32,000 bases of DNA from assembly GCF_003010495.1 (NCBI RefSeq), contig NZ_CP027570.1:1710001-1742000 (forward strand), in the 5' to 3' direction. Below are positions 5,730 through 30,118 of the stretch, piece after piece. The position numbers and the translations under genes are program-made. Within the stretch, counting starts at the first letter, position 1, and each line of letters begins with the position of its first letter. Under the pieces are notes generated by a model, which worked only from the letters and a program-made list of their open reading frames with translations, searched no databases and was not told the DNA's origin. This DNA is from Megasphaera elsdenii DSM 20460. GTDB lineage: Bacteria > Bacillota > Negativicutes > Veillonellales > Megasphaeraceae.

Positions 5730-8093
5730 ATGAATAAAAGAAGTATGCGGATTTTGGGATTCTATCAGGTCCAGAACATGCTGGTCCGCCTGGCACCGTC
5801 CCGTTTGTCCAAGGAAATCGCCCGCCGCCTGAGACCGGTGAACGACAGCGAAGTCATTGAACGGAATCTGACTGATACAGAAGAAGCCGTCCGCTGTATG
5901 CAGACGGAAACGAGTACGCCCTTCGGCGGCATCGTCGATATCCGGCCGTCTCTGGAAAAGGCTAAGCGCGAAGTGACCCTTGATTCGCATGAATGTATCG
6001 ATATCTGGAATAATCTTCAGCATTATGGGGAAATCCGGTCTTTCTTTGCCGACCGCGGCGCCGAATATCCTCAGCTGGCCGAACAGGCAGACGTTATCGG
6101 CGATTTTTCCCAGTTGTCCCATTCTTTCGCGACGGTCTTCGACAACAATCGCCAAATACGGGACAATGCGTCGCCGGAATTGATGCGCCTGCGCAGCCGC
6201 ATCGTCGAACTGGAACGGCAGACCAAGCGCTACGTCAATAATGTCTTGCAGAATAAGGAATACCAGAAGTATTTCCAAGATGCCCTGGTCACCGTGCGCA
6301 ATAACCGTTATGTCATTCCTATCAAGCAGGAATACCGCCATGCTTTTCCGGGTATCGTCCATGATACGTCGGCCAGTGGCTCGACGCTCTATGTCGAACC
6401 GTTGGCCATCGTCAATGCCAACAACGACTTGCAAGCTGCACGCATTGGCGAAACGAAGGAAATCGAACGCATTTTCCGCCGTCTGACAGCGAAAGTACAG
6501 CAGCAGTACAACGATTTGTATGACAGCACGAAATGTGTAGGCCAGCTGGAATTTGCCTTTGCCAAGGCCCAGTTAGCCTTGAAGATGAAAGCCTGCCGTC
6601 CGGCTGTTTCTAAGACGCGGGAAATCAAGCTCATCCAGGCCCGCCATCCTCTTATCGACGCCAAACACGTCGTGCCGAATACCATTGTCATCGGCGGCGA
6701 TTATCGCATCCTCCTCATTACGGGCTCCAACACCGGTGGTAAAACCGTTTCCATGAAGACCTTGGGCCTTTTGGTCCTCATGCATCAAGCCGGCCTGTTC
6801 ATCCCCGTCGGCGAATCGTCGGAACTGCCCGTCTTCCGCGACGTATTTTCCGATATCGGCGACGAACAGGATATTTCCCAGAACTTGAGTACTTTTTCCA
6901 GCCATATGAAGCAGCTCATCTACATCCTCAAGCACTGCGGCCCGGACGACCTCATCCTGGCGGACGAACTCGGTTCCGGCACGGATCCAGCCGAAGGCAG
7001 TGCCATCGCCATTGCCATCCTCGATGCCTTTTATCAGAAAGGGTCGTATGTCATGGTCACCACTCATTACAACGACCTCAAGAACTATGCCTATAATACG
7101 CCGGGCATCGAAAACGGCCACGTCGAATTCGATATGGAAACACTGAAACCGACGTATAAATTGCGCATCGGTTCGGCCGGCAGTTCTCATGCTTTCAGCA
7201 TCAGCGAACGCCTGGGTATGCCCAAGGACATCCTGGAAAAAGCAAAAGACCTGCGCAGCAAGGCGCAGGACATGGATATGGAAAAAGTCCTGACCCAGCT
7301 CAATGCACAGGCCAAAAAGATGGATGAAGAACAGGCTGAACTAGAATACCGCCTGCGTGAAGCGCGGAAACTGGAAGACGATCTGCGCAAAGAAAAGGAT
7401 AAGGTCACGTCCAAGCGGCAGGATATCATCGATGCCAGCCGCCGCGATGCCGTCGACCTCAAGCGCAACCTCCGCGTCGAAGCGGAAAAGATTATCCGTG
7501 AACTGAAGGCCCAGTCCAAAGAGGGGACGGACCGGGAAAAGGCCAAGGCTATCGACAAGGCCCGCCGGGCGATCCAGCAGATTTCCCTGCCCGAAGCCGA
7601 AAAGCCTCAGCGCGACCCCATCGACCTGTCGAAGCTGAAAGTCGGCCAGCAGGTCTTCGTCAATAACCTGGACAGTGTCGGCACGGTCGAAGACATCGGC
7701 AGCAAACAGCTCACCGTCTCCGTCCGGGGCATGACGGTCCGCGTCAAGTTCAAAGATGTCAGCGCGCCGTACTTGGACGAATTGAAGAAAGAAAAACAGG
7801 CCGAAAAGAAAGCGGCTGCCGCTTCGTCATACCGGCCTATCCGCACGTCCAGCGTGGCGACGGAGTTGAACATCATCGGCAAGACGTTCAGCGAAGCCCT
7901 GCCGGAAGTCGAACGCTTCCTGGACCAGGCCCTGGCTGCCGGTTTCAGCCCGGTCAAAATCATCCACGGCAAGGGCAGCGGTGCCCTGCGCCGTCAGATC
8001 CACGCCTTCCTCGACGACCAGCCATTCGTCAAGAAATACCAGCTCGACGACGTAGACGGCGGCGGTGCCGGCGTCACCCTGGTCTATTTCTAA
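5730..8093 (+). CDS. mutS2: Endonuclease MutS2 (MutS domain plus C-terminal Smr)
   Basis: The Walker A is ITGSNTGGKTV and the MutS ATPase motifs are STFSSHM and DELGSGTDP. A long coiled-coil region follows, then a C-terminal Smr domain (ELNIIGKTFSEAL...KIIHGKGSGALR). The start is taken at MNKRSM, with GGAG 11 nt upstream. The track start at 5592 overlaps the U32 gene. Confidence 0.92.
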   Translation: MNKRSMRILGFYQVQNMLVRLAPSRLSKEIARRLRPVNDSEVIERNLTDTEEAVRCMQTETSTPFGGIVDIRPSLEKAKREVTLDSHECIDIWNNLQHYGEIRSFFADRGAEYPQLAEQADVIGDFSQLSHSFATVFDNNRQIRDNASPELMRLRSRIVELERQTKRYVNNVLQNKEYQKYFQDALVTVRNNRYVIPIKQEYRHAFPGIVHDTSASGSTLYVEPLAIVNANNDLQAARIGETKEIERIFRRLTAKVQQQYNDLYDSTKCVGQLEFAFAKAQLALKMKACRPAVSKTREIKLIQARHPLIDAKHVVPNTIVIGGDYRILLITGSNTGGKTVSMKTLGLLVLMHQAGLFIPVGESSELPVFRDVFSDIGDEQDISQNLSTFSSHMKQLIYILKHCGPDDLILADELGSGTDPAEGSAIAIAILDAFYQKGSYVMVTTHYNDLKNYAYNTPGIENGHVEFDMETLKPTYKLRIGSAGSSHAFSISERLGMPKDILEKAKDLRSKAQDMDMEKVLTQLNAQAKKMDEEQAELEYRLREARKLEDDLRKEKDKVTSKRQDIIDASRRDAVDLKRNLRVEAEKIIRELKAQSKEGTDREKAKAIDKARRAIQQISLPEAEKPQRDPIDLSKLKVGQQVFVNNLDSVGTVEDIGSKQLTVSVRGMTVRVKFKDVSAPYLDELKKEKQAEKKAAAASSYRPIRTSSVATELNIIGKTFSEALPEVERFLDQALAAGFSPVKIIHGKGSGALRRQIHAFLDDQPFVKKYQLDDVDGGGAGVTLVYF

Positions 8094-8103
8094 GGGAAGG
8101 GGG

Positions 8104-8150
8104 CGCATGAGGTTTCTGTCATCATGCGAGGGTCTTTTCTCTTTTATGTT
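8104..8150 (+). terminator. Probable intrinsic terminator after mutS2
   Basis: CGCATGA (8104-8110) pairs with TCATGCG (8122-8128) and is followed by T-rich cttttctctttt. The stem is short and the loop long. Confidence 0.4.
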
Positions 8151-8180
8151 TGAGGCATGGTTTTTAATTTAAAGCCATCC

Positions 8181-8199
8181 GCTAACCACTAGCCACTTA
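8181..8199 (+). repeat. CCACTA-type heptad repeats (GCTAACC ACTAGCC ACTTA)
   Basis: The repeats abut the next terminator. Confidence 0.7.
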
Positions 8200-8231
8200 A
8201 AAGAGCTTGTCGTATGCGACAAGCTCTTTTT
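8197..8231 (+). terminator. Strong intrinsic terminator
   Basis: AGAGCTTGTCG (8202-8212) pairs with CGACAAGCTCT (8217-8227), a perfect 11 bp stem. The loop is TATG. An A-run lies 5' and TTTTT lies 3'. Confidence 0.85.
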
Positions 8232-8235
8232 GCTA

Positions 8236-8334
8236 TGTAATAAAAAAAGTTACACTAATTTCCGAAGAAGGGTTGACGAGATAGCTGTAATGTGATATAT
8301 TACAACTATCCTAATTGTAAATAAATTAATTACA
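8236..8334. promoter_or_regulatory. Three copies of the 19-bp palindrome TGTAA-N9-TTACA (putative operators)
   Basis: The copies lie at 8236-8254, 8286-8304 and 8316-8334, with centres 50 and 30 bp apart. The middle copy overlaps the -10 element and the third covers the early transcribed region. Confidence 0.6.
8273..8301 (+). promoter_or_regulatory. Promoter of the NAD(P)H-reductase/SirTM/macro operon (TTGACG-17-TATATT with extended -10 TG)
   Basis: TTGACG lies at 8273-8278, TG at 8293-8294 and TATATT at 8296-8301. Confidence 0.65.
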
Positions 8335-8396
8335 ACAAGGAACATTCCATTTCAACATATATTTGCATTGCGCTGTGCGCAGAAAGGTAGTCTATT

Positions 8397-9035
8397 ATGA
8401 ATAAGAAAATTGCTGTTGTTGCTGCTGGTGGTCGTGTTTCTCGTAAGGTTATTTCTGAAGCGGTCCGCCGCGGTTTCGATGTGACGGCTTTTGGCCGCAA
8501 GGCAGAAAATATGACTGATGCCCAGCATTATGTACAGAAAGATATCCTCGATTTGACGGCGGCTGATTTGGCTGGTTTCGATGCTGTCGTCGACGGCTTT
8601 GGGGCCTGGACGCCGGAAACCCTGCCTGGTTATATGACGACGACGGAACATCTCTGCCAGATCCTCAGCGGCAGCCCAGTCCGCCTGCTCATCGTCGGCG
8701 GGGCTGGCTCACTCTTTACTAATAAAGAACACACGACTGTCCTGGCCGAAGCACCGGATTTCCCTGATGAATTCAAGCCTTTGGCAGCAGCTGCCGCTGA
8801 GGTTTTAAAGGCTATGCGCCAGCACGACGATGTCAAATGGACTTATGTCAGCCCGGCTGCGGACTTCCAGGCCGATGGCGAACGGACGGGGAAATACATC
8901 CTGGGCGGCGAAGAATTGACTTTGAACAGCCGTAACGAATCGATTATTTCCTATGCCGACTATGCCATCGCCATGGTCGACGAAATCGAAAAGGGCCATC
9001 ACATCAATCAGCGCATCAGCGTCGTCCGGGCCTAA
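8397..9035 (+). CDS. NAD(P)H-binding Rossmann protein (atypical SDR, NmrA/YwnB-like putative flavin reductase)
   Basis: The N-terminal dinucleotide fold is KIAVVAAGGRVSRKVISEAVRRGFDVTAFGR. At 212 aa, the size and overall pattern fit NAD(P)-binding-domain proteins. Confidence 0.7.
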   Translation: MNKKIAVVAAGGRVSRKVISEAVRRGFDVTAFGRKAENMTDAQHYVQKDILDLTAADLAGFDAVVDGFGAWTPETLPGYMTTTEHLCQILSGSPVRLLIVGGAGSLFTNKEHTTVLAEAPDFPDEFKPLAAAAAEVLKAMRQHDDVKWTYVSPAADFQADGERTGKYILGGEELTLNSRNESIISYADYAIAMVDEIEKGHHINQRISVVRA

Positions 9036-9067
9036 GTTTTTCATCGCTATTGAAGGAGGTGCCGGGA

Positions 9068-9970
9068 ATGGAAAAGATTCAGCAGTTACAACGGGCTTTG
9101 CATGATTCAGCGGCCGTCGTCATCGGTGCCGGTTCGGGCCTTTCGACGGCAGCGGGCCTGACCTATTCCGGTGAACGGTTCCGCCGGTATTTCTCGGATT
9201 TCATCAGGAAATACGGCATCCGCGACATGTATTCCGGCGGCTTTTTCCACTTTTCCGATGTTCGCGAATACTGGGCCTGGTGGAGCCGGGCCATTTACAT
9301 CAACCGCTACGTCCCGGCACCGACCGATGTCTATCGCCGTTTGTATGACCTGGTGCGGGACAAGGATTATTTCGTCTTGACGACCAATGTGGACCATCAG
9401 TTCCAGAAAGCCCGTTTCGATAAAAAGCGCTTGTTCTATACGCAAGGGGATTACGGCCTGTTCCAGGAGAAATATCCCGTGACGGCCAGGACCTATGATA
9501 ATGAGGCGGTCATCGTCGCCATGATGGAGGCCCAGGGCTTCGTCTATGACTCACATCACTGCTTCGTGCCGCCGGAAAAGGGGACCGTCTCCATGCAGGT
9601 CCCGGCGGCGCTCTGGCCGCGCAGCCCCGAAGATGGCCAGGACCTGGTGCCCAACCTGCGCTGTGACGACACGTTCGTCGAAGATGCAGGCTGGAAGGCG
9701 GCGGCCCGCCGGTATCAGCAGTTTTTGCAGGACCATCGGCAGGGACGTGTGCTCTACCTGGAATTAGGCGTCGGCATGAATACGCCGGGAATCATCAAGA
9801 TTCCTTTTTGGCAGTACACCCAGGCTAATCCGCAGGCCATCTACGCCTGCGTCAATGCCAGTGATGCCCGCAGTCCGGAATGGATCCGCCGGCAGGCCAT
9901 CGGCATCGAAGGGGATATCGCCGATGTACTCACTGCCTTAGAAAGGGGGGAGAGTCATGAACCGTCATGA
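9068..9970 (+). CDS. Class-M sirtuin (SirTM-type, predicted protein ADP-ribosyltransferase)
   Basis: The sirtuin NAD pocket is VVIGAGSGLSTAAGL and TTNVDHQF replaces the usual TQNID. Gln replaces the catalytic His (LFYTQGDYG). There is no Zn-ribbon CxxC pair. The gene is translationally coupled to a macrodomain gene. The start is taken at MEKIQQ, with GGAGG upstream. Confidence 0.75.
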   Translation: MEKIQQLQRALHDSAAVVIGAGSGLSTAAGLTYSGERFRRYFSDFIRKYGIRDMYSGGFFHFSDVREYWAWWSRAIYINRYVPAPTDVYRRLYDLVRDKDYFVLTTNVDHQFQKARFDKKRLFYTQGDYGLFQEKYPVTARTYDNEAVIVAMMEAQGFVYDSHHCFVPPEKGTVSMQVPAALWPRSPEDGQDLVPNLRCDDTFVEDAGWKAAARRYQQFLQDHRQGRVLYLELGVGMNTPGIIKIPFWQYTQANPQAIYACVNASDARSPEWIRRQAIGIEGDIADVLTALERGESHEPS

Positions 9971-10748
9971 ACAACTTGCTTTTTTGATTCACCAGCTTCA
10001 GCAGGAAATGCCGGAATACGCCGCTTATGACATTCCCGATGACGATGGTCAGGCGTTCCAGCTCTACCGGGCCTTGTGCAACGTCCGCCAGCCGGGGAAA
10101 CATGTGCCGTCGCCGCAGTTCCTAGCTGCCGAAGCGGCTGTCCTCCAGGGACTGACGCGGGAAAAAGGGATTACCGATGGCCGCTATCTGCCGGCCATTC
10201 CTAGCCATGAGCATCTGCATCTCTGGCAAGGAGATATTACGACGCTGGCTGTCGATGCCATCGTCAATGCCGCTAATGACCAGCTCCTGGGCTGTTTTCG
10301 ACCGCTCCACTCGTGTATCGACAATATGATCCATACTATGGCCGGCGTGGCTTTGCGGGAACGATGTTTTACTATCATGCAGGCCCAGGGCCATGCTGAG
10401 GCGACGGGCCAGGCGAAAATCACGCCGGCTTACAACCTGCCCTGCCGCTACGTCCTGCATACCGTCGGACCTATCGTCCGGGGGGCTTTGACGCCACAGA
10501 CCCAAGGCCAGCTGGCTTCGTGCTATCGGAGCTGCCTCGACTTGGCCGCCGCCAAAGGCTGCCAGTCCCTGGCCTTCTGCTGCATCTCGACAGGCGTCTT
10601 CGGCTTCCCTAAAAAAGAAGCGGCCCACATTGCCGTAACCAACGTATCGCAGTGGCTGCGGCAACATGAGCCGATAGAAGTCGTCTTCAACGTTTTTACC
10701 GAGGAAGATTATAGGATATATAATCGTTATTTACATAAAGGAGTATGA
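9957..10748 (+). CDS. Macrodomain protein, SirTM-associated Zn-type (ADP-ribose hydrolase)
   Basis: The macro core is LWQGDITTLAVDAIVNAANDQLLG...VLHTVGP. The Cys/His insertion GCFRPLHSCIDNMIH is characteristic of Zn-dependent macrodomains in SirTM operons. The gene overlaps the SirTM gene by 14 nt and has a strong RBS (GGGGGGAGAG). Confidence 0.8.
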   Translation: MNRHEQLAFLIHQLQQEMPEYAAYDIPDDDGQAFQLYRALCNVRQPGKHVPSPQFLAAEAAVLQGLTREKGITDGRYLPAIPSHEHLHLWQGDITTLAVDAIVNAANDQLLGCFRPLHSCIDNMIHTMAGVALRERCFTIMQAQGHAEATGQAKITPAYNLPCRYVLHTVGPIVRGALTPQTQGQLASCYRSCLDLAAAKGCQSLAFCCISTGVFGFPKKEAAHIAVTNVSQWLRQHEPIEVVFNVFTEEDYRIYNRYLHKGV

Positions 10749-10753
10749 TTATT

Positions 10754-10963
10754 ATGAAAAAGATTATTTTAGCTGTCCTCTTTGGAGCATTCAGTGTAAG
10801 CGGAATGGCTGCTTTTGCAACTGCCCCTGTTCACCAAGGTTATTCGGAAAATGGTGATTATCAAGCTGTTGTAAATCAGCAAATAAACACGACTGAGCTG
10901 AGAGGCCCAGTATCACATACCTATTCAGAAAATGGCGATTACCAAGCAGCTCCGGCCAGATAG
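10754..10963 (+). CDS. Small exported protein with duplicated YSENGDYQA motif
   Basis: It has a Sec signal (MKKIILAVLFGAFSVSGMAAFA, then TAP). The mature part is about 47 aa, has no Lys, and contains two copies of YSENGDYQA. The RBS AAAGGAG is 10 nt upstream of ATG 10754. I recognise no homolog. Confidence 0.5.
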   Translation: MKKIILAVLFGAFSVSGMAAFATAPVHQGYSENGDYQAVVNQQINTTELRGPVSHTYSENGDYQAAPAR

Positions 10964-11161
10964 AACCCTGCGGGCCGCCTTACCAGGCGGCCGATGCCAA
11001 CCTCTTCCGAAGAACCTCTCAGACCGCCGTTGGCGGCCAGCTCCCCTATGAAGGGGAGCCTTTGGGCGCTCCTGCGCCTGATTTCCAGAGTCTATTGCGG
11101 CAAAGCCGCTTCTGAGTCCGAGCAAACAGGTCCCTACGGTGCGGCCATAAGGCCGCAAAAA

Positions 11162-11194
11162 CGAACCACGAACCACTAGCCACGAGCCACGAAC
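11162..11194 (+). repeat. Heptad tandem array CGAACCA CGAACCA CTAGCCA CGAGCCA CGAAC
   Basis: The array abuts the stop codon (11196-11198) of the minus-strand porin gene. Confidence 0.85.
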
Positions 11195-11195
11195 A

Positions 11196-12542
11196 TTAAA
11201 ACAGCATCTGGAAGTGGATGCGGGTCATTTCGTGGGGATCCTGGCTGCCGGTCTTGGCCTGGCTGGCGAAGGACTGCATGACGCTGAATTTCAGGTTCTT
11301 GGCGACGATGTAGTCGACGCCGATACCCCAGCTGCGCTGGTTATCCATGTCGCTGGAGAAACGCCACGTGAAGGGGTTGCCGCCGAGGAAGGAGCCGTCG
11401 TCGAGGTCGAGGTATTCCAGCCACGTATCCCAGCTGCCGGGAGCGGCGAAGGACGCATTGCCGTACTGGAGTTTGCCCATCCAGGCGTCGCCGTAATCCT
11501 GGCCGTCGACGTTCTTGACACCTGCGTTGAAGCCGATGTGTTCGTAGTTGGCCAGGGCGCTCCACTTGCCGTAGTTGCCGCGGGCGAAGTAGCCGGCAAT
11601 GTATTTGGCGAAATAGTCTTCTCCCGAGCTGTGGTTGGACTGGTGGAGGCGGTTGTAGTAAATGCCGGCTTCGGAACGGGCTGCTTTGCCGCCGCCGAAG
11701 AAGACGTCGATTTCGCCGTAGCCCGTCTTCAAGCCGTCGGTACTGAAGTGGTCCGAATGGGCGTCGGAAATAGGTTTCACCGTATCGACGCCGGGCTTCT
11801 TGCCGTCCTTGAATTTGCCGTAGCCCGTGGTGATGGCCAGGTTATCGTTGTGATAGCGCAGTTCGGCGCCGTCCAGGGCATCGAAGTACTGCAGACCATA
11901 GGCGTCGCGGCCGATGCGGTAGACGTCATTGCGGCCGACGCTGAGTTCCCAGTTCTTGCTGCCGAAGTTGTAATCCACTTTGGCTAAATCCATATAGGGG
12001 TTGTTGCCTTCGTCAGAAGCGGCTTTGTTGCTGGCGAAGGGGCGAAAGCCCGTGCTGACACCGGCTGTGACCTTGGTGCGGTCATTGACCTGGCCTTGGG
12101 CACGGATGCGGAAGCGCGTATCCCAGGAATTGTCGTTCTTCTTGTTGCCGTTCTGGTAACGGTAACGGACGAAGGCATCGCCGAAAACGCGGGTGTTGCC
12201 GACGCGGTTTTCCAGGTTGGTCACGCGGACGCCGAGGTTGTTCAGTTCGTCGGCATATTCGTCAGCCAGCTTGTTGATCAGGGCCCGCTGTTCGACAGAG
12301 GCTTTGTCCATATGGGCCATGGCCTTGGCGACCATTTCAGCGGCTTCGTAGCGGGTGATGTTGCGATGGCCCTGGAAATACTGACCGTCGACGCCCTGGA
12401 TGATACCGGCGTCGGCCAGTTCGACGACGGACTTGTAAGCCCAGCTGTCAGACGGGACATCGACAAAGGGATTCGCGGCTAAGGCCGACAGGGAAGTGAC
12501 AGCTAAGGCGGCTGTCAGGGTACAGACTACTTGTTTCTTCAC
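11196..12542 (-). CDS. OmpM-like outer-membrane porin with N-terminal SLH domain
   Basis: It has a signal peptide, then an SLH domain (FVDVPSDSWAYKSVVELADAGIIQGVDGQYFQGHRNITRYEAAEMVAKA). A coiled-coil linker follows, then an aromatic/Gly-rich beta-barrel region ending in a terminal Phe (IHFQMLF). The start codon is GTG. The architecture is typical of Negativicutes. Confidence 0.85.
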   Translation of the reverse strand: MKKQVVCTLTAALAVTSLSALAANPFVDVPSDSWAYKSVVELADAGIIQGVDGQYFQGHRNITRYEAAEMVAKAMAHMDKASVEQRALINKLADEYADELNNLGVRVTNLENRVGNTRVFGDAFVRYRYQNGNKKNDNSWDTRFRIRAQGQVNDRTKVTAGVSTGFRPFASNKAASDEGNNPYMDLAKVDYNFGSKNWELSVGRNDVYRIGRDAYGLQYFDALDGAELRYHNDNLAITTGYGKFKDGKKPGVDTVKPISDAHSDHFSTDGLKTGYGEIDVFFGGGKAARSEAGIYYNRLHQSNHSSGEDYFAKYIAGYFARGNYGKWSALANYEHIGFNAGVKNVDGQDYGDAWMGKLQYGNASFAAPGSWDTWLEYLDLDDGSFLGGNPFTWRFSSDMDNQRSWGIGVDYIVAKNLKFSVMQSFASQAKTGSQDPHEMTRIHFQMLF

Positions 12543-12671: not shown

Positions 12672-13394
12672 TTATAATTTTACGTGGCTGAAGACTTCAC
12701 CAATCGGGTCGTGGAGCACCAGGTCGGCTGCGCTGTCCATGTCCGTACTGGATTTGTTGATCAAGACCAGTTTATGGCCGCGGTAGTAACGGACCAGACC
12801 GGCTGCTGGGTAGACGACGAGGCTCGTGCCGCCGATGATGAGCATATCGGCGTGGCTGATGTAGTACAGGGACTGTTCGATGACGTCGTTGTCCAGGCCT
12901 TCTTCATAGAGGACGACGTCAGGCTTGATGATGCCGCCGCAGGCGTCGCACTTGGGGATGCCTGTGGAATTCTTCATGTATTCGGCGTCGAAGAACTTGT
13001 TGCAGTGCATGCAGAAGTTACGATGGACGCTGCCGTGTAGTTCCAAGACGTTTTGGCTGCCCGCTTTCTGGTGCAGGCCGTCGATGTTCTGGGTGACGAT
13101 GGCTTTTAGTTTGCCCGCTTTTTCCAGTTCGGCCAGTTTGATATGGGCCATGTTGGGCTGGGCGTCGAGGGCCAGCATCTTGTCGCGGTAGAAGCGGTAA
13201 AATTCTTCCGTGTTGTCCATGAAGAAGGAATGGCTGAGGATCGTTTCGGGCGGGTATTTATAGTGCTGGTTGTACAGGCCGTCGGTGCTGCGGAAATCGG
13301 GGATGCCGCTTTCCGTCGAGACGCCGGCGCCGCCGAAGAAGACGATGTTATCGGAATTTTTGACCATGTCGACGAATTTTTCAATATCTGTCAT
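12672..13394 (-). CDS. cobB: NAD-dependent protein deacylase, canonical Sir2/CobB
   Basis: GGAGVSTESGIPDFRS, TQNIDGLH, the catalytic His in LELHGS and the Zn ribbon CMHC...CDAC are all present. The start is taken at MTDIEKF, with AAGGAG 8 nt upstream. Confidence 0.9.
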   Translation of the reverse strand: MTDIEKFVDMVKNSDNIVFFGGAGVSTESGIPDFRSTDGLYNQHYKYPPETILSHSFFMDNTEEFYRFYRDKMLALDAQPNMAHIKLAELEKAGKLKAIVTQNIDGLHQKAGSQNVLELHGSVHRNFCMHCNKFFDAEYMKNSTGIPKCDACGGIIKPDVVLYEEGLDNDVIEQSLYYISHADMLIIGGTSLVVYPAAGLVRYYRGHKLVLINKSSTDMDSAADLVLHDPIGEVFSHVKL

Positions 13395-13408
13395 CGTAAG
13401 GGCTCCTT

Positions 13409-13900
13409 TCACACATGATACGTATCTTTTAATAATTGCAGACCCGATGGGGTACGGAATACCTTGTCGCGGAAGGTGGCAATGGCTTCCGGTTTCAGCT
13501 GGTCTTCATAGGCGTTGACCAAAAAATCGGCTTCCAGGAGTATCTGGTAGTCCAGGCCGTCGATGCCGTCGTAGGTGTGGTGGTGGGCGATGAGGAAGCA
13601 GACCCGGTCGATGAGCTTTTCGTCAGCACCGAGTTCTTCCAGGATGGCCCTGGCCGGGGCGGGACCTTCGATTTCCTGGTATTTGCCCGACGAGGAACCG
13701 TATTTTTCTTCGGCTGCGTGGATGCCGATGTCGTGGAGGACGGCGGCTGTCCGCAGGATGTCCTGCTGGTCTGCCGGCAGTCCTTCCAGGCGGCCGATGG
13801 TGTCGGCGTAGGCGTAGACCTTGAGGAAATGGTGGATGCGCCGGGCGTCGCCGTGGTCGAAGGCGATGGCTTTTTGTATTACTTGTTCAATAGATGTCAT
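13409..13900 (-). CDS. HD-domain phosphohydrolase-family protein
   Basis: HHFLKV...AAVLHDIG...IAHHHTY matches the H..HD..H metal-binding pattern. The stop lies 14 nt upstream of the cobB start, so the two are probably one operon. Confidence 0.7.
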   Translation of the reverse strand: MTSIEQVIQKAIAFDHGDARRIHHFLKVYAYADTIGRLEGLPADQQDILRTAAVLHDIGIHAAEEKYGSSSGKYQEIEGPAPARAILEELGADEKLIDRVCFLIAHHHTYDGIDGLDYQILLEADFLVNAYEDQLKPEAIATFRDKVFRTPSGLQLLKDTYHV

Positions 13901-18643: not shown

Positions 18644-20541
18644 GTGCGCCCGGCATGGGCGCACTCTAATGGGTGAAAGTCCCTAAGCCGCCCGGTAGCG
18701 GGAAGGCTATAGCCAGAACCAAGGGTGTCCATCGTGAGATGGAATCTGAAGGAAGGTCGAGGCAAATCTCTGGTCTGACGAACAGAAATCACATAAGGCT
18801 AGTCATGGGGATAAGGCCGCCTAACAGGTTGAAGTCCCATAGCTACACGGAACCATGAATAGTAGATGTGGCAGACACATGGAGAGAAAGAGTGCGTTCT
18901 TACCCGGGGAGGCCTCATGGACATGATGGTGCCATATAGATTGGACATCATGGTTGAAATAAGATTTATCATGAGGAGTCAGCCGAGGCCATAGTACCTT
19001 ATGGGCTATAGACCATGAGGAAAGGGCCGAATCCTAGGAGATGTTAGTTAATGAAAGTAACCAATCATGGAATGAAAGACAGAAAACTTCATCAAGAAGG
19101 CTGTCCACAAAAAGAGGTTGCGGAACAATCGGGATATGTGGAAGCGTCTGCCCATGCGAGGATTGCTGAACACAACGACATCATTGCAAGCTTGCCAGCG
19201 GACAGTCTGTTGAAGCAGATTTTATCACGAGACAACTTAAATGGTGCCTATAAGAAGGTAAAGTCTAATCGAGGAACCGGCGGGGTCGACAGGATGAGTG
19301 TAGATGAACTTCTACCCTACCTGCGGGAACATCGCCTGGACCTCCTTCAGCAAATACGGAATGGGAAATATAAGCCCCAGCCAGTCCGTCGGGTTGAAAT
19401 ACCCAAAGAGGAAAAAGGGAAATTCCGGAAATTAGGAATCCCTACGGTCGTAGACCGCATGATACAACAGGCGATTACGCAGGTTCTTGTGCCTATCTAC
19501 GAGCCACAGTTTTCAGATAGCAGTTTCGGGTTCCGTCCCAAACGGGGCGCCCACGATGCGTTGAAACAATGCCAGGCCTATGCAGATGAGGGCTATGTCT
19601 ACGTCGTAGACATGGACTTGGAGAAATTTTTCGACAATGTCTGCCAAAGCAAATTGATAGAAGTTCTGTCAAGGAGCGTAAAAGACGGCCGGGTCATCTC
19701 GCTGATACACCAATATCTCCATGCTGGTGTTATCCGGCATGGGATGTTCGAACGAAGTGAACAGGGGGTTCCCCAAGGAGGGCCATTGAGTCCGCTCTTG
19801 AGTAACATCATGCTGAATGAGCTGGATAAGGAGCTGGAACGGCGCGGACATAAATTTGTCCGCTATGCAGATGACTGCATGATACTCTGCAAAAGCAGAA
19901 GAAGTGCCGAAAGGACCTTGGAAAGCATCACTCGATATATTGAGAAGAAATTATTTCTCAAGGTGAATCGAAATAAGACGCACGTAGCCCACATCCGCTA
20001 TGTTAAATATCTGGGATATGGCTTCTACCGAAAGAATGGAAAATGCCGACTCCGGGTGCATCCGAAATCCATTACTAAGATGAAAGACCGTTTGCGGTTT
20101 ATATTGAAACGAAGCAATGGAAAAGGAAACGAAGTGAGAGCCCTTCTATTGAAACGATTCATAAAGGGATGGGTGAATTACTTTAAACTAGCGAATATGA
20201 AGGAACTGCTAATTCAAATTGACAGATGGATTCGACGCAAAATACGAACCATATACTGGAAACAATGGAAGAAGGTACGGACGAAACACCGGATGATAAG
20301 CCAATACGGCGCGCCCAAGTGGGTAGTGTTGGAAATGGCTAACTGCCGAAAAGGTCCGTGGCGAGCAGCGGCAATGCTGAACTCAGTTCTTACGAATAAA
20401 GAAATAGCCCGCCTTGGCTACATAACCATGACGAGCTATTACAAGCAAGTATGCGAAAACTAGGAAACCGCCGTGTACCGAACGGTACGCACGGTGGTGT
20501 GAGAGGTCGGGATTTCTACTCAGAAATCCCTCCTACTCGAT
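18644..20541 (+). mobile_element. Group II intron (bacterial class-C-like), full length with intron-encoded protein
   Basis: The 5' end is GTGCG at 18644. The ORF lies in domain IV. Domain V is CCGCCGTGTACCGAACGGTACGCACGGTGG (20468-20497), with a CGC triad and a 2-nt bulge. Domain VI has a 9-bp helix GGGATTTCT/AGAAATCCC and a bulged A at 20535. The 3' end is AT at about 20540-20541 (uncertain by a few nt). Insertion 8 nt past a terminator stem is the class C hallmark. Confidence 0.85.
19051..20463 (+). CDS. Group II intron reverse transcriptase/maturase (no endonuclease domain)
   Basis: RT blocks are present (GVDRMSVDEL, RRVEIPKEEKGKFRKLGIPTVVDRMIQQA, FGFRPKRGAHDAL, GVPQGGPLSPLLSNIML, YADD in VRYADDCMILC). 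A maturase X region follows (GWVNYFKLA). The protein ends without an HNH/En domain. Confidence 0.93.
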   Translation: MKVTNHGMKDRKLHQEGCPQKEVAEQSGYVEASAHARIAEHNDIIASLPADSLLKQILSRDNLNGAYKKVKSNRGTGGVDRMSVDELLPYLREHRLDLLQQIRNGKYKPQPVRRVEIPKEEKGKFRKLGIPTVVDRMIQQAITQVLVPIYEPQFSDSSFGFRPKRGAHDALKQCQAYADEGYVYVVDMDLEKFFDNVCQSKLIEVLSRSVKDGRVISLIHQYLHAGVIRHGMFERSEQGVPQGGPLSPLLSNIMLNELDKELERRGHKFVRYADDCMILCKSRRSAERTLESITRYIEKKLFLKVNRNKTHVAHIRYVKYLGYGFYRKNGKCRLRVHPKSITKMKDRLRFILKRSNGKGNEVRALLLKRFIKGWVNYFKLANMKELLIQIDRWIRRKIRTIYWKQWKKVRTKHRMISQYGAPKWVVLEMANCRKGPWRAAAMLNSVLTNKEIARLGYITMTSYYKQVCEN

Positions 20542-24571: not shown

Positions 24572-24629
24572 AGTGGTTCGTGGCTCGTGATTCGCTAGCC
24601 ACTAGCCACTAACTGCTAACCACTAAAAA
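24572..24629. repeat. Head-to-head heptad array: 3 reverse units (GTGGTTC GTGGCTC GTGATTC) then 5 forward units (CTAGCCA CTAGCCA CTAACTG CTAACCA CTAAAAA)
   Basis: The array starts directly after the tkt stop codon. AGTGGTT (24572-24578) is the exact reverse complement of AACCACT (24618-24624). Confidence 0.85.
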
Positions 24630-24773: not shown

Positions 24774-26225
24774 TTGTATACGAAAGCATTATTGACAGAC
24801 CTGTACCAGTTGACGATGATGCAGGGCTTATTTTTTGAAGGCAAGCACGAACAACAATGCGTGTTTGACCGTTACTACCGGACCAATCCCTTCCAAGGGG
24901 GGTATACGGTCGTCGCCGGGCTGGAACATCTCATCGATTATGTACACAATATACATTTCAGTGAGGACGACCTGGCCTATTTGAAGAGTACGGGCTTCTT
25001 CCAGGACGAATTTCTCGAATACTTGAAGGACCTGCGCTTTACAGGTGACATTTATGCTATGCCTGAAGGAACAGTCGCTTTTCCGCAGGAAGTGCTCCTG
25101 CGCGTCCAGACGAAGAAAGACGAAGCGTTATTGTTAGAAACATGCATGTCCATGATCATGAACCATGAAAGCCTTATTGCCACCAAGGCTCGCCGCGTCC
25201 GGACGGTGGCTGGCAAGGATAATCTCATGGAATTTGGTCTGCGCCGGGCTCAGGGGAAATCGGCCGGCGTCTACGGTGCCCGGTCGGCTATGATCGGCGG
25301 ATTTAACGGGACCAGCAACGTCCTGGCTGGGGCTAAGTTCGGCATGCCCGTTTTAGGGACGATGGCCCACAGCTGGATCATGAGCTTCTCGTCAGAACTG
25401 GAAGCTTTCCGCGCTTATGCCCGCCAGTATCCGAACAACCTCATTCTCCTGGCCGACACGTATAATACCCTGAAACAGGGGGTGCCAGATGCCATCACGA
25501 TTTTCAAGGAAATGAAAGCGGCCGGCACCCTGCCTAAGGCTTATGGCATCCGCCTGGACAGCGGCGACCTGGCTTATTTGTCGAAAGAAGCCCATAAGAT
25601 GTTTGCCGAAGCCGGCTTCCCCGATGCCATCATTGCTGCCTCCAATGACCTCGATGAAAACCTCATTTCCGAATTGAAAGCCCAGGGCTGTGTCATCAAT
25701 TCCTGGGGCGTCGGCACGAATTTGATTACCGCTAAGGACAGCCCCTCCCTGGGAGGCGTCTTTAAACTCGTCGGCCAGTATGACGACGGGAAGTTCGTAC
25801 CTAAAATCAAGATGAGCGATAATGTGGAAAAGATTTCCAATCCGGGCCTGAAGAACGTCCTGCGTATTTACGATAAAGAGACGGGCAAGATGAAGGCCGA
25901 CATCATTATCCTCGAAGGCGAAAGCATCGACGAATCGAAGGACCTCCTCCTTCAGAGCGACAAAGCCCCGTGGCGTTCGCGGACCATTCCCGGCGGGACC
26001 TACCGCGTCCAGAAGATGCTCATCCCGATTTTCCAGAAAGGTGAACTGGTCTATCAGAAACCGGACCTCAAGGAAATCATGGCCTATGCCGACCAGCAGA
26101 TCCAGACTTTATGGCCGGAATACCTGCGCCTGGTCAACCCGGAAGAAATGTGGGTCCAGCGCAGTACGAAGCTGTCGGCTTTGCGCGATAAAGTATTGAA
26201 AGAAGAATCAGCCCATTTCTTTTAG
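24774..26225 (+). CDS. pncB: Nicotinate phosphoribosyltransferase
   Basis: LLTDLYQLTMMQG...MEFGLRRAQG...GTMAHSWIMSF...GIRLDSGDL is present. The start codon is TTG, with GGAGG 10 nt upstream. Confidence 0.92.
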   Translation: MYTKALLTDLYQLTMMQGLFFEGKHEQQCVFDRYYRTNPFQGGYTVVAGLEHLIDYVHNIHFSEDDLAYLKSTGFFQDEFLEYLKDLRFTGDIYAMPEGTVAFPQEVLLRVQTKKDEALLLETCMSMIMNHESLIATKARRVRTVAGKDNLMEFGLRRAQGKSAGVYGARSAMIGGFNGTSNVLAGAKFGMPVLGTMAHSWIMSFSSELEAFRAYARQYPNNLILLADTYNTLKQGVPDAITIFKEMKAAGTLPKAYGIRLDSGDLAYLSKEAHKMFAEAGFPDAIIAASNDLDENLISELKAQGCVINSWGVGTNLITAKDSPSLGGVFKLVGQYDDGKFVPKIKMSDNVEKISNPGLKNVLRIYDKETGKMKADIIILEGESIDESKDLLLQSDKAPWRSRTIPGGTYRVQKMLIPIFQKGELVYQKPDLKEIMAYADQQIQTLWPEYLRLVNPEEMWVQRSTKLSALRDKVLKEESAHFF

Positions 26226-26236
26226 GAGATGATTGC

Positions 26237-27049
26237 ATGAAAGGTGCCATCATTGGCGATATCGCCGGTTCTGTTTATGAATTTGATAAAACAGCAGATT
26301 CCTTAGATTTCCCTTTATTTACCAGGGCCAGCCGCTTTACCGACGATACGGTGACGACTGTAGCCGTAGCGGCGGCTTTGATGGAGGGGAAGGCTTCTCA
26401 CTGTGGCTATGTCGGGCCGCTGCGGAGACAGCTCCGCTACTGGTGCCGGAAATATCCCAATGCCGGTTTCGGCGGCATGTTCCGCCGCTGGTTCCTGGCC
26501 GACGAAGCGCCGGCTTATGGAAGTTATGGCAATGGGGCAGCAATGCGCGTCAGCCCGGCCGGTTGGGTAGCCGCTTCCCTTGATGAAGCGCAGGAACTGG
26601 CTGAACTGACGGCCGTCGTCAGCCATGACCATCCGCAGGCCATCAAGGGGGCCGTCGCCGTCGCCTCGGCCATTTTCCTGGCCCGGCAGGGGAAGGGGAA
26701 AGCGGAGATTGCCGCGTATCTCCGAAAGTATTTCTATGATTTGTCCCAAACCCTGGCTCAGATCCGTCCGTCTTATGGCTTTACCTGTACGACGGACGAC
26801 AGTGTGCCTGAAGCTATCGAATGTTTCCTGGAAGGGATGGATTATGAAGATACGATTCGCAAGGCCATCTGGCTCAATGGCGATACGGATACGCAGGCAG
26901 CCATTGCCGGCAGTATCGCCGAAGCCTATTATGGCGTGCCTCAGGCGTTATGGCAGCAGGCGCTGCCTTATGTCGATGACGAAGAAATGAAGGGCGTCAT
27001 CCGGCAATTCTATCAAGATTATATTGGTTCGAGGGGGAACTCTTTTTGA
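26237..27049 (+). CDS. ADP-ribosylglycohydrolase (ARH/DraG) family protein
   Basis: GAIIGDIAGSVYEF, FTDDTVTTVAV, GNGAAMRVSP and the metal-site motif GDTDTQAAIAGSIAEAYYG are present. Confidence 0.85.
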   Translation: MKGAIIGDIAGSVYEFDKTADSLDFPLFTRASRFTDDTVTTVAVAAALMEGKASHCGYVGPLRRQLRYWCRKYPNAGFGGMFRRWFLADEAPAYGSYGNGAAMRVSPAGWVAASLDEAQELAELTAVVSHDHPQAIKGAVAVASAIFLARQGKGKAEIAAYLRKYFYDLSQTLAQIRPSYGFTCTTDDSVPEAIECFLEGMDYEDTIRKAIWLNGDTDTQAAIAGSIAEAYYGVPQALWQQALPYVDDEEMKGVIRQFYQDYIGSRGNSF

Positions 27050-27879
27050 TTTCAACAGAGACAGGCAAGAAATATGAAAAACTCCAGCAGATTTTAAAGG
27101 ATATGGGCAGCGTCGTCATCGGTTTTTCCGGCGGCGTCGACAGCACGTTCCTGACCTATGCAGCGCACCAGGCCCTGGGAGACCGCGTCCTGGCCGTGAC
27201 GGCTGTTTCGGCAACCCTGCCGGGCAGTGAAGCGGCTGACGCCAAAGCCATGGCTAAGGTCATCGGCGTCGAGCACCGTCTGGTCCATTCGACGGAATTC
27301 GAAGATACGGAATTCATCAAGAATCCGCCAGACCGCTGCTATATCTGCAAAAAGATACGCTTTACCTCACTGGTGGAGCTGGCCAAGGCCGAAGGCTATC
27401 AGTGGGTTGTCGATGGGGGGAATGTCGACGACCTCGGCGATTATCGTCCCGGCATGAAGGCATTGCAAGAATTGTCTGACTTCGTCCGCAGCCCGATGAT
27501 CGAAGCGGGGTTAGCCAAAGCGGATATCCGGGCCTTATCGAAGGAATTCGGCCTCCAGACCTGGAATAAACAGAGTGCGGCCTGCCTGGCCAGCCGTATT
27601 CCCTACGGTGTGGAACTGACGCCGCACCGCCTGGCCCAGATCGATGCAGCCGAAGCGGCGGTAGCTCCTTATATCCAGGGGTCTCTGCGCGTCCGGTATC
27701 ACGGGGATGTAGCCCGCATCGAAGTGGCTGTCGATGAAATCCCGTCGATCCTGGCTCATCGCCAGGAAATCGTCCGGGCCATCAAAGATACGGGCTTTAC
27801 CTACGTCACCCTCGATTTGGGCGGCTATGAAATGGGGAGCTTGAACGACGTGATCAATACGGATGAGGAAGTAAAATAA
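27046..27879 (+). CDS. larE: LarE-type ATP-dependent sulfur transferase (PP-loop ATP pyrophosphatase)
   Basis: The PP-loop is GFSGGVDST. DYRPGMKA, TWNKQSAACLASRIPYG (the Cys aligns with the LarE sulfur-donor Cys), VRYHGDVARIE and YVTLDLGGY are present. An extra CYIC pair suggests the Fe-S-cluster LarE subclass. The TTG start overlaps the ARH stop (TTGA). Confidence 0.8.
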   Translation: MISTETGKKYEKLQQILKDMGSVVIGFSGGVDSTFLTYAAHQALGDRVLAVTAVSATLPGSEAADAKAMAKVIGVEHRLVHSTEFEDTEFIKNPPDRCYICKKIRFTSLVELAKAEGYQWVVDGGNVDDLGDYRPGMKALQELSDFVRSPMIEAGLAKADIRALSKEFGLQTWNKQSAACLASRIPYGVELTPHRLAQIDAAEAAVAPYIQGSLRVRYHGDVARIEVAVDEIPSILAHRQEIVRAIKDTGFTYVTLDLGGYEMGSLNDVINTDEEVK

Positions 27880-30090: not shown

Positions 30091-30118
30091 CACTAACCAC
30101 TAACCACTATCCACTAAA
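30091..30118 (+). repeat. Heptad tandem array CACTAAC CACTAAC CACTATC CACTAAA
   Basis: The array starts at the first base after the brnQ stop codon and runs into the terminator A-tract. Confidence 0.9.

Follow-up and report, generated by a model that had tools for sequence, protein, structure and literature searches.

The window analysed here, a stretch of 32,000 nucleotides of the Megasphaera elsdenii DSM 20460 genome (contig NZ_CP027570.1, positions 1,710,001 to 1,742,000), harbours a compact gene cluster in which a class-M sirtuin (SirTM) and a zinc-dependent macrodomain (Zn-Macro), the putative writer and eraser of a protein ADP-ribosylation, are preceded by a gene for a YwnB-type reductase and by three copies of the operator of SifR-type Rrf2 repressors. 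We propose, with a probability of roughly 0.7, that the locus is an operon inducible by electrophiles or quinones, which combines a reductase with the reversible ADP-ribosylation of a target other than the lipoyl carrier GcvH-L and which is controlled by an Rrf2 repressor acting in trans. A SirTM/Zn-Macro pair without GcvH-L and the lipoate ligase LplA2 belongs to an already described category, and the novelty claimed for it in an earlier note, written from the sequence of the window alone, was overstated. The new and useful element is the link of the SirTM pair to a YwnB reductase and a SifR/YwnA-type operator, here and in many other lineages.

Identity of the sirtuin and the macrodomain

The open reading frame (ORF) at 9068-9970, for which an alternative TTG start exists at 9050, is confirmed as a class-M sirtuin. 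A phmmer search against the PDB at E<=1 matched only the Streptococcus pyogenes SirTM (SpySirTM) structure 5A3A (E 5.8e-55) and, with a weaker score, Mfs1, a fungal fusion of macrodomain and SirTM; canonical sirtuins were not found even at this threshold, and a Pfam search provided no SIR2 match. The AlphaFold2 model of the protein (predicted local distance difference test 88, predicted template modelling score 0.85) gave 5A3A as the top Foldseek match with a template modelling (TM) score of 0.85, compared to ca. 0.55 for canonical sirtuins. In the alignment the segment YTQGDY is placed onto HIQGEY of 5A3A, and Gln126 thereby coincides with the catalytic Gln137 of SpySirTM. The earlier note had predicted a SirTM with a glutamine instead of the catalytic histidine. 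The 5A3A alignment, the Foldseek result and the missing SIR2 match bear this out, and the position at which a deacylating sirtuin would carry an aligned histidine is occupied by glutamine.

For a comparison within the family, a protein search with the window SirTM returned at least 8000 candidates and a scan of species-representative genomes at least 595 relatives, from which the 79 closest SirTM loci of other genomes were analysed. The catalytic glutamine (QG replacing the His of HG) is invariant in 80/80 aligned SirTM sequences, and the equivalents of Asn118, Gln137 and Arg192 are likewise conserved in all 80 family members. The window protein also carries the segments TTNVD, NLR and GVGMNTP, the latter fitting the pyrophosphate motif GVGx[NT]TP; the motif definitions, including Asn118 and Arg192, were taken from Rack 2015 (PMC4518038).

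The zinc site was inspected in an alignment of the window SirTM with its 79 relatives and SpySirTM. The four zinc-coordinating cysteines of SpySirTM are replaced by Glu, Val, Ser and Asp, so that none is kept, as had been recognized before. The accompanying statement that this loss is a described SirTM feature does not stand, because SpySirTM and the fungal Foc1Mfs1 coordinate a structural zinc (PMC4518038, PMC11490716) and missing zinc cysteines are therefore not a hallmark of class M. The full set of four is retained in 23 of the 80 aligned relatives, most of them having one only, and a small-domain insertion of about 18 residues is found in 61/80 sequences as well as in the window SirTM. 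The small domain of the latter appears to be a zinc-less variant, and the loss of the cysteines marks a subclade.

The ORF at 9957-10748 is confirmed as a zinc-dependent macrodomain. In the profile hidden Markov model searches, proposed in the earlier note for both ORFs, it passed the NCBIfam equivalog NF003163 (protein-ADP-ribose hydrolase) with 342.7 bits at a cut-off of 272, the SirTM ORF remaining without a Pfam SIR2 match. The Zn-Macro structures 8RSI, 5KIV, 8RSL and 8RSM were matched with E-values of 1e-60 to 1e-67, the best being 8RSI (MorMacro, 1e-67; 5KIV, 1e-65), whose alignment spans the full length of the protein (residues 1-259) including the N-terminal three-helix extension. The zinc loop Cx4HxC is present as CFRPLHSC and aligned to the loops of MorMacro and SauMacro, the NAAN motif occurs as VNAAND and the Asp/His dyad as CIDNMIH. 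Zn-Macros are defined by the NAAN motif, an extension at the N-terminus and a Cx(4)HxC loop in place of the Gly-rich catalytic one (PMC11490716). The Cys/His insertion pointed out from the sequence alone has hence been placed in the correct class by the NF003163 cut-off and the 8RSI and 5KIV matches.

Operon structure and Rrf2-type operators

Four ORFs on the plus strand were confirmed, at 8397-9035, 9068-9970, 9957-10748 and 10745/10754-10963. The first is separated from sirTM by 32 nt, sirTM and macro overlap by 14 nt (9957-9970), as already noticed before, and macro is followed by the small ORF after a 5-nt gap. The NAD(P)H-binding Rossmann reductase that had been suspected in front of the pair turned out to be a YwnB ortholog (PF13460, 4R01), its best PDB match being the Streptococcus pneumoniae YwnB structure 4R01 (E 2e-68), and the S. 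pneumoniae enzyme has been shown to act as an NAD(P)H quinone reductase (Zhang 2022, PMC9218516). The arrangement suggests that ywnB-sirTM-macro(-small ORF) form one operon with its own promoter behind the mutS2 terminator (Table 1). Genes of the window recur in many metagenome contigs from the human gut and the rumen.

Table 1. Coordinates and assignment of the features of the ywnB-sirTM-macro locus
Feature	Position	Strand	Basis
Intrinsic terminator of mutS2, 14-bp perfect stem followed by a T-run; separates the predicted operon from mutS2	8199-8230	+	inverted repeat
Operator 1, TGTAATAAAAAAAGTTACA (TGTAA-N9-TTACA), upstream of -35	8236-8254	.	motif match
Predicted sigma-70-type promoter: TTGACG, 17-nt spacer, TATATT, extended -10 TG	8273-8301	+	10/12 positions match
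Operator 2, TGTAATGTGATATATTACA, overlaps the -10 box	8286-8304	.	motif match; repressor-like position
Operator 3, TGTAAATAAATTAATTACA, in the 5' untranslated region	8316-8334	.	motif match
YwnB-ortholog reductase (Rossmann, NAD_binding_10)	8397-9035	+	Pfam PF13460, E 1.8e-11; PDB 4R01
SirTM (class-M sirtuin), putative NAD+-dependent protein mono-ADP-ribosyltransferase	9068-9970	+	PDB matches, motifs, alignment, AlphaFold model/Foldseek
Zn-Macro, predicted protein-ADP-ribose hydrolase	9957-10748	+	NCBIfam equivalog, PDB matches, zinc loop CFRPLHSC, NAAN
Small ORF, 69 aa, signal peptide, two YSENGDYQA repeats	10754-10963	+	ORF list

Perfect TGTAA-N9-TTACA palindromes occur three times within 100 bp (0.00 expected from shuffled sequence) and are absent from the remainder of the 32 kb. 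This 19-bp sequence is bound by SifR, the YwnA homolog of S. pneumoniae, which directly represses ywnB and is released from DNA upon quinone adduction of its single conserved cysteine (PMC9218516). The promoter is conserved in the Megasphaera alignment, and the operator arrangement is kept in two other species of the genus (loci L095 and L096), even where a gene for an SgcJ/SnoaL-like protein replaces ywnB. In detail, the order ywnB-sirTM-macro is found behind mutS2 in Megasphaera sp. WILCCON 0056 as well, at the corresponding site and lacking the small ORF. In a third Megasphaera species the SgcJ/SnoaL-like gene takes the place of ywnB, and sirTM, macro and two unknown genes come next. In L016, L020, L028 and L071, too, a 19-mer identical to TGTAATGTGATATATTACA precedes Rrf2 or Macro genes. 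Assignment of the palindromes to Rex-type operators, which have a 4-nt spacer, was rejected because the spacing between TGTAA and TTACA is constantly 9 nt.

Some further details of this region deserve mention in their own right. A tiny hydrophobic ORF (MVNFGQVIGCIVFAAVVCIIYGLY...) diverges from the operator region on the minus strand of L095 (6300-6460) and L096 (7250-7330) and is absent from M. elsdenii; the same applies to an apparent remnant of an SgcJ/SnoaL-like gene with an operator of its own in L095. The direct repeat AACCACTAGCCAC, found at 8184 and 11171, might suggest a mobile insertion. This idea was discarded, since the repeat is present in at least five of the window's intergenic regions and therefore represents a genome-wide intergenic repeat and not a unit boundary. 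A short heptad-like repeat, AACCAC[TG]A[GA]CCAC, lies at gene ends (3480, 8184, 11164-11190, 24580-24609 and 30095-30114) with 9 matches in the window against 0.4 expected, and an intergenic gap of 1.3 kb in L095 consists of arrays of related 'gtttgtagt' repeats. An Rfam scan of 7900-11400 revealed nothing meaningful.

The small ORF most plausibly starts at 10754, with a GGAG 10 nt upstream. Its product had been described as a tiny, exported and lysine-free protein, and indeed a signal peptide is present and the mature part contains no lysine. Its GC content amounts to 43% and its GC content at third codon positions to 31%, compared to 57-79% at third positions in the neighbouring genes. The ORF is identical across 10 M. 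elsdenii contigs; neither Pfam nor NCBIfam offered a family match, and no homolog was detected in the 79 other SirTM loci or in Megasphaera L095 and L096. As a feature specific to M. elsdenii, it has probably been added recently and stands outside the conserved module.

The gene neighbourhoods of SirTM orthologs were compared, as the earlier note had suggested, over the 79 loci from many lineages and within Megasphaera. All ORFs were called, searched by phmmer with the window proteins and the neighbours clustered. A Zn-Macro gene adjoins SirTM in about 62/79 loci, mostly upstream of it, the order SirTM-then-Macro of the window being that of a minority. About 14-18 of the 79 SirTM genes have no Zn-Macro in several kb of flank (e.g. 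L013, L021, L025, L041, L048 and L085), three of these loci being ywnB-Rrf2-SirTM units, and the linkage between writer and eraser is therefore not absolute in this clade, although contig ends limit some of these cases.

An ortholog of ywnB was identified in 11/79 SirTM loci (phmmer E 1e-57 to 1e-99), always upstream and on the same strand; in 10 of the 11 it lies within 6 kb of SirTM, and 8 of these 10 also contain an Rrf2 gene. Altogether, Rrf2 regulator genes are present in 25/79 loci (same strand in 25 of 26 ORFs), and the encoded proteins, whose best PDB matches are 1YLF and the Bacillus subtilis YwnA structure 1XD7, carry a CPV cysteine motif in 24/26 cases. Over the 79 loci the TGTAA-N9-TTACA motif was counted 46 times against 1.6 expected, with 37 sites placed within 3.5 kb upstream of SirTM. 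It was recorded in 22 of the 25 loci with a cis-encoded Rrf2 protein versus 5 of the 54 without (Fisher p = 7e-12). At ywnB-ortholog promoters of unrelated lineages the palindrome overlaps the -35 or the -10 box. An HxlR regulator is encoded divergently in 11/79 loci, and the operator in 0/11 of them. Redox enzymes are found up to 6 kb from SirTM in 37/79 loci and comprise nitroreductase, FMN reductase, flavodoxin, aldo-keto reductase, short-chain dehydrogenase, PNPOx-like protein and OYE, each in 4-5 loci.

Two other recurrent contexts emerged from this survey. The first (L021, L040, L063, L070, L091) consists of a divergent HxlR gene, a radical SAM/SPASM protein, nitroreductase, DUF1848, Macro and SirTM; the radical SAM/SPASM protein belongs to the ACGX system (TIGR04340, 590 bits), and the five loci are devoid of TGTAA-N9-TTACA. 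In the second (L020, L073, L059, L064, L079) an FMN reductase or PNPOx-like gene and the S-component of an energy-coupling factor (ECF) transporter are situated directly upstream of Macro-SirTM, L020 and L073 containing an Rrf2 gene as well, and L059 and L064 a divergently oriented HxlR gene.

Proposed function and alternative explanations

Based on these data we suggest the following scenario. In unstressed cells the three operators would most likely be occupied by a YwnA/SifR-type Rrf2 repressor, a sensor of the monothiol kind whose gene would have to lie in another part of the genome. These operators bracket and overlap the predicted promoter. Quinones or other thiol-reactive electrophiles or oxidants might then modify the sensor cysteine, upon which the repressor would leave the DNA and the operon would be transcribed. 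YwnB is expected to reduce quinones with NAD(P)H, and SirTM might use NAD+ to attach mono-ADP-ribose to an acidic residue of a protein different from GcvH-L. Zn-Macro would remove the ADP-ribose again and thus render the modification reversible. Of the redox-linked regulatory switch considered in the earlier note, the redox part gains support from ywnB and the Rrf2-type operators.

Several observations weigh against this scenario. An Rrf2 gene is found neither in the window nor within 10 kb of either end, and the repressor therefore has to be assumed. The operator is common to SifR, the hypochlorite sensor HypR and SaiR (PMC9218516), and the signal could therefore be an oxidant and not a quinone. 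A ywnB ortholog is present in only about 14% of the SirTM loci, which makes the reductase an accessory and not an obligate partner. Finally, no candidate for the target is universal across the 79 SirTM loci.

The pair may alternatively act in trans on GcvH-L or a canonical GcvH encoded elsewhere, as a split variant of the Staphylococcus/Streptococcus system. This possibility draws on the fact that GcvH-L is the sole SirTM substrate known so far (PMC4518038, PMC11490716), but we consider it very improbable. Searches with E. coli GcvH and LplA by phmmer, a single-sequence method of limited sensitivity, detected a homolog neither in the 32-kb window nor in any of the 79 SirTM loci compared, and the Pfam gene lists of the window and the 10 kb beyond each end, i.e. 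20 kb of additional flank, do not include the GCV_H and BPL_LplA_LipB families. The previously claimed lack of GcvH-L and LplA2 in the transcription unit and its surroundings thus holds within the window and 10 kb on each side. A literature search on lipoate or glycine-cleavage genes of M. elsdenii furnished nothing usable. Moreover, Zn-Macros of lone pairs fail to demodify GcvH-L, AlphaFold 3 complexes with GcvH-L were of low confidence (Ariza 2024, PMC11490716), and the best structural match of the macrodomain is MorMacro, itself derived from a lone pair.

Even less credence is given to a toxin-antitoxin or phage-defence module in the manner of DarT/DarG, with SirTM as toxin and the macrodomain as antidote, which the earlier note had contemplated. 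The overlap of the writer and eraser genes and the position of the eraser in front of the writer in most loci are reminiscent of many toxin-antitoxin pairs, and some loci are near recombinases or Schlafen/AlbA-type genes. Against this, PADLOC assigned none of the four proteins to a family, and the genes occupy the same chromosomal site, between mutS2 and an SLH porin gene, in three Megasphaera species. Co-regulation with detoxification genes also disagrees with such a module, as the predicted promoter and the stress-type operators are shared with a detoxifying reductase. Furthermore, the approximately 14-18 of 79 SirTM genes without a flanking Zn-Macro are hard to reconcile with a lethal toxin, and the characterised SirTMs are highly substrate-specific (PMC4518038).

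Equally implausible is a housekeeping function in NAD metabolite turnover, with the macrodomain clearing O-acetyl-ADP-ribose or free ADP-ribose produced by the CobB protein encoded only 1.7 kb away (12672-13412) and with SirTM being weak or regulatory: the macrodomain does score on O-acetyl-ADP-ribose deacetylase models and NAD salvage genes lie in the same window, but these scores are below the cut-offs, the equivalog threshold is passed for protein-ADP-ribose hydrolase only, the invariance of the catalytic Asn, Gln and Arg of SirTM in 80/80 sequences argues for selection on activity, and CobB adjacency is restricted to Megasphaera and one other locus (L017).

Beyond the inducible operon favoured here, one may speculate that lone SirTM/Zn-Macro pairs form an output arm of YwnA/SifR-type Rrf2 regulons that sense quinones and electrophiles in gut anaerobes, and that their substrate is encoded next to them, being either the reductase of the YwnB type or the Rrf2 repressor. 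We regard this extension as rather unlikely. If it were true, NAD+-dependent ADP-ribosylation would gate quinone detoxification or its transcriptional control. Substrate and trigger of lone pairs are stated as open questions by Ariza 2024 (PMC11490716), and such pairs abound in bacteria of the gut and the rumen, with at least 595 species-level genomes matched. The link between operator, sensor family and quinone reductase suggests quinones, catechols or thiol-reactive oxidants as inducers, and a suggested inducing condition makes the discovery of the target practical.

Genomic surroundings and relation to known systems

Further genes related to NAD and ADP-ribose are encoded around the operon. 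A canonical CobB-type sirtuin, which matches its NCBIfam equivalog with 348 bits and has the catalytic His and the four zinc cysteines, is encoded together with an HD-domain protein on the minus strand (12672-13900) at a distance of 1.7 kb from the SirTM pair, and this adjacency recurs in Megasphaera sp. WILCCON 0056. The stretch 24774-27879 looks like an operon whose products are a nicotinate phosphoribosyltransferase (24774-26225), a member of the ARH/DraG family of ADP-ribosylglycohydrolases (26237-27049) and a protein resembling NAD synthase (27046-27879). The glycohydrolase represents a second, unrelated type of ADP-ribose eraser, and the NAD salvage operon that includes it is 14 kb away from the SirTM pair. 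According to the Pfam lists, nadA, nadB and nadC follow a few kb past the end of the window. At 19051-20463, DSM 20460 carries a group II intron reverse transcriptase, and most metagenome contigs of the species have a sodium:dicarboxylate symporter gene after ileS at this place.

Bacterial SirTM/macro pairs have been classified into independent and extended operons, Veillonellaceae being among the hosts (Rack 2015, PMC4518038). The lone arrangement was later named minimal operon, the structure of MorMacro was solved from one of them, and the targets of minimal operons were stated as unknown (Ariza 2024, PMC11490716). The M. elsdenii locus is an ordinary member of this described class. Of the new four-gene context postulated in the earlier note, the conservation of three genes is retained, whereas the lone pair as such was known and the small ORF is species-specific. 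The SifR paper (PMC9218516) contains no mention of sirtuins or ADP-ribosylation, and a full-text literature search for SirTM and Rrf2 found no link between the two.

Compared to the extended operons of S. aureus and S. pyogenes, built up of GcvH-L, Macro, SirTM, LplA2, OYE and LLM, the locus shares the writer and eraser families, the association with an NAD(P)H- or flavin-dependent oxidoreductase and a proposed role in oxidative stress. It differs in the lack of a lipoyl carrier and a lipoate ligase and in an oxidoreductase of the YwnB type instead of OYE/LLM; the substrate would have to be a different one. The minimal operons of Methanobrevibacter oralis, Enterococcus faecalis and Treponema pedis correspond more closely, with a QG sirtuin beside a Cx4HxC Zn-Macro and neither GcvH-L nor LplA2; MorMacro (8RSI) provides the best PDB match, and Veillonellaceae are listed hosts. 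However, the gene order is SirTM-Macro and not Macro-SirTM as in most loci, the SirTM has none of the four zinc cysteines and its small domain contains an insert of about 18 residues, and the pair is placed behind a ywnB-type reductase gene and three Rrf2-type operators, a context not found in the literature searched. With regard to the control region, the described SifR/YwnA regulons are devoid of ADP-ribosylation genes, and in M. elsdenii the Rrf2 gene is not in cis and neither catechol dioxygenase nor iron-uptake genes are linked. The locus has in common with the SifR/YwnA regulon of S. pneumoniae and with ywnAB of B. subtilis the 19-bp TGTAA-N9-TTACA operator over the promoter and ywnB as target gene, and in related SirTM loci a CPV-motif Rrf2 gene adjoins ywnB just as in ywnAB.

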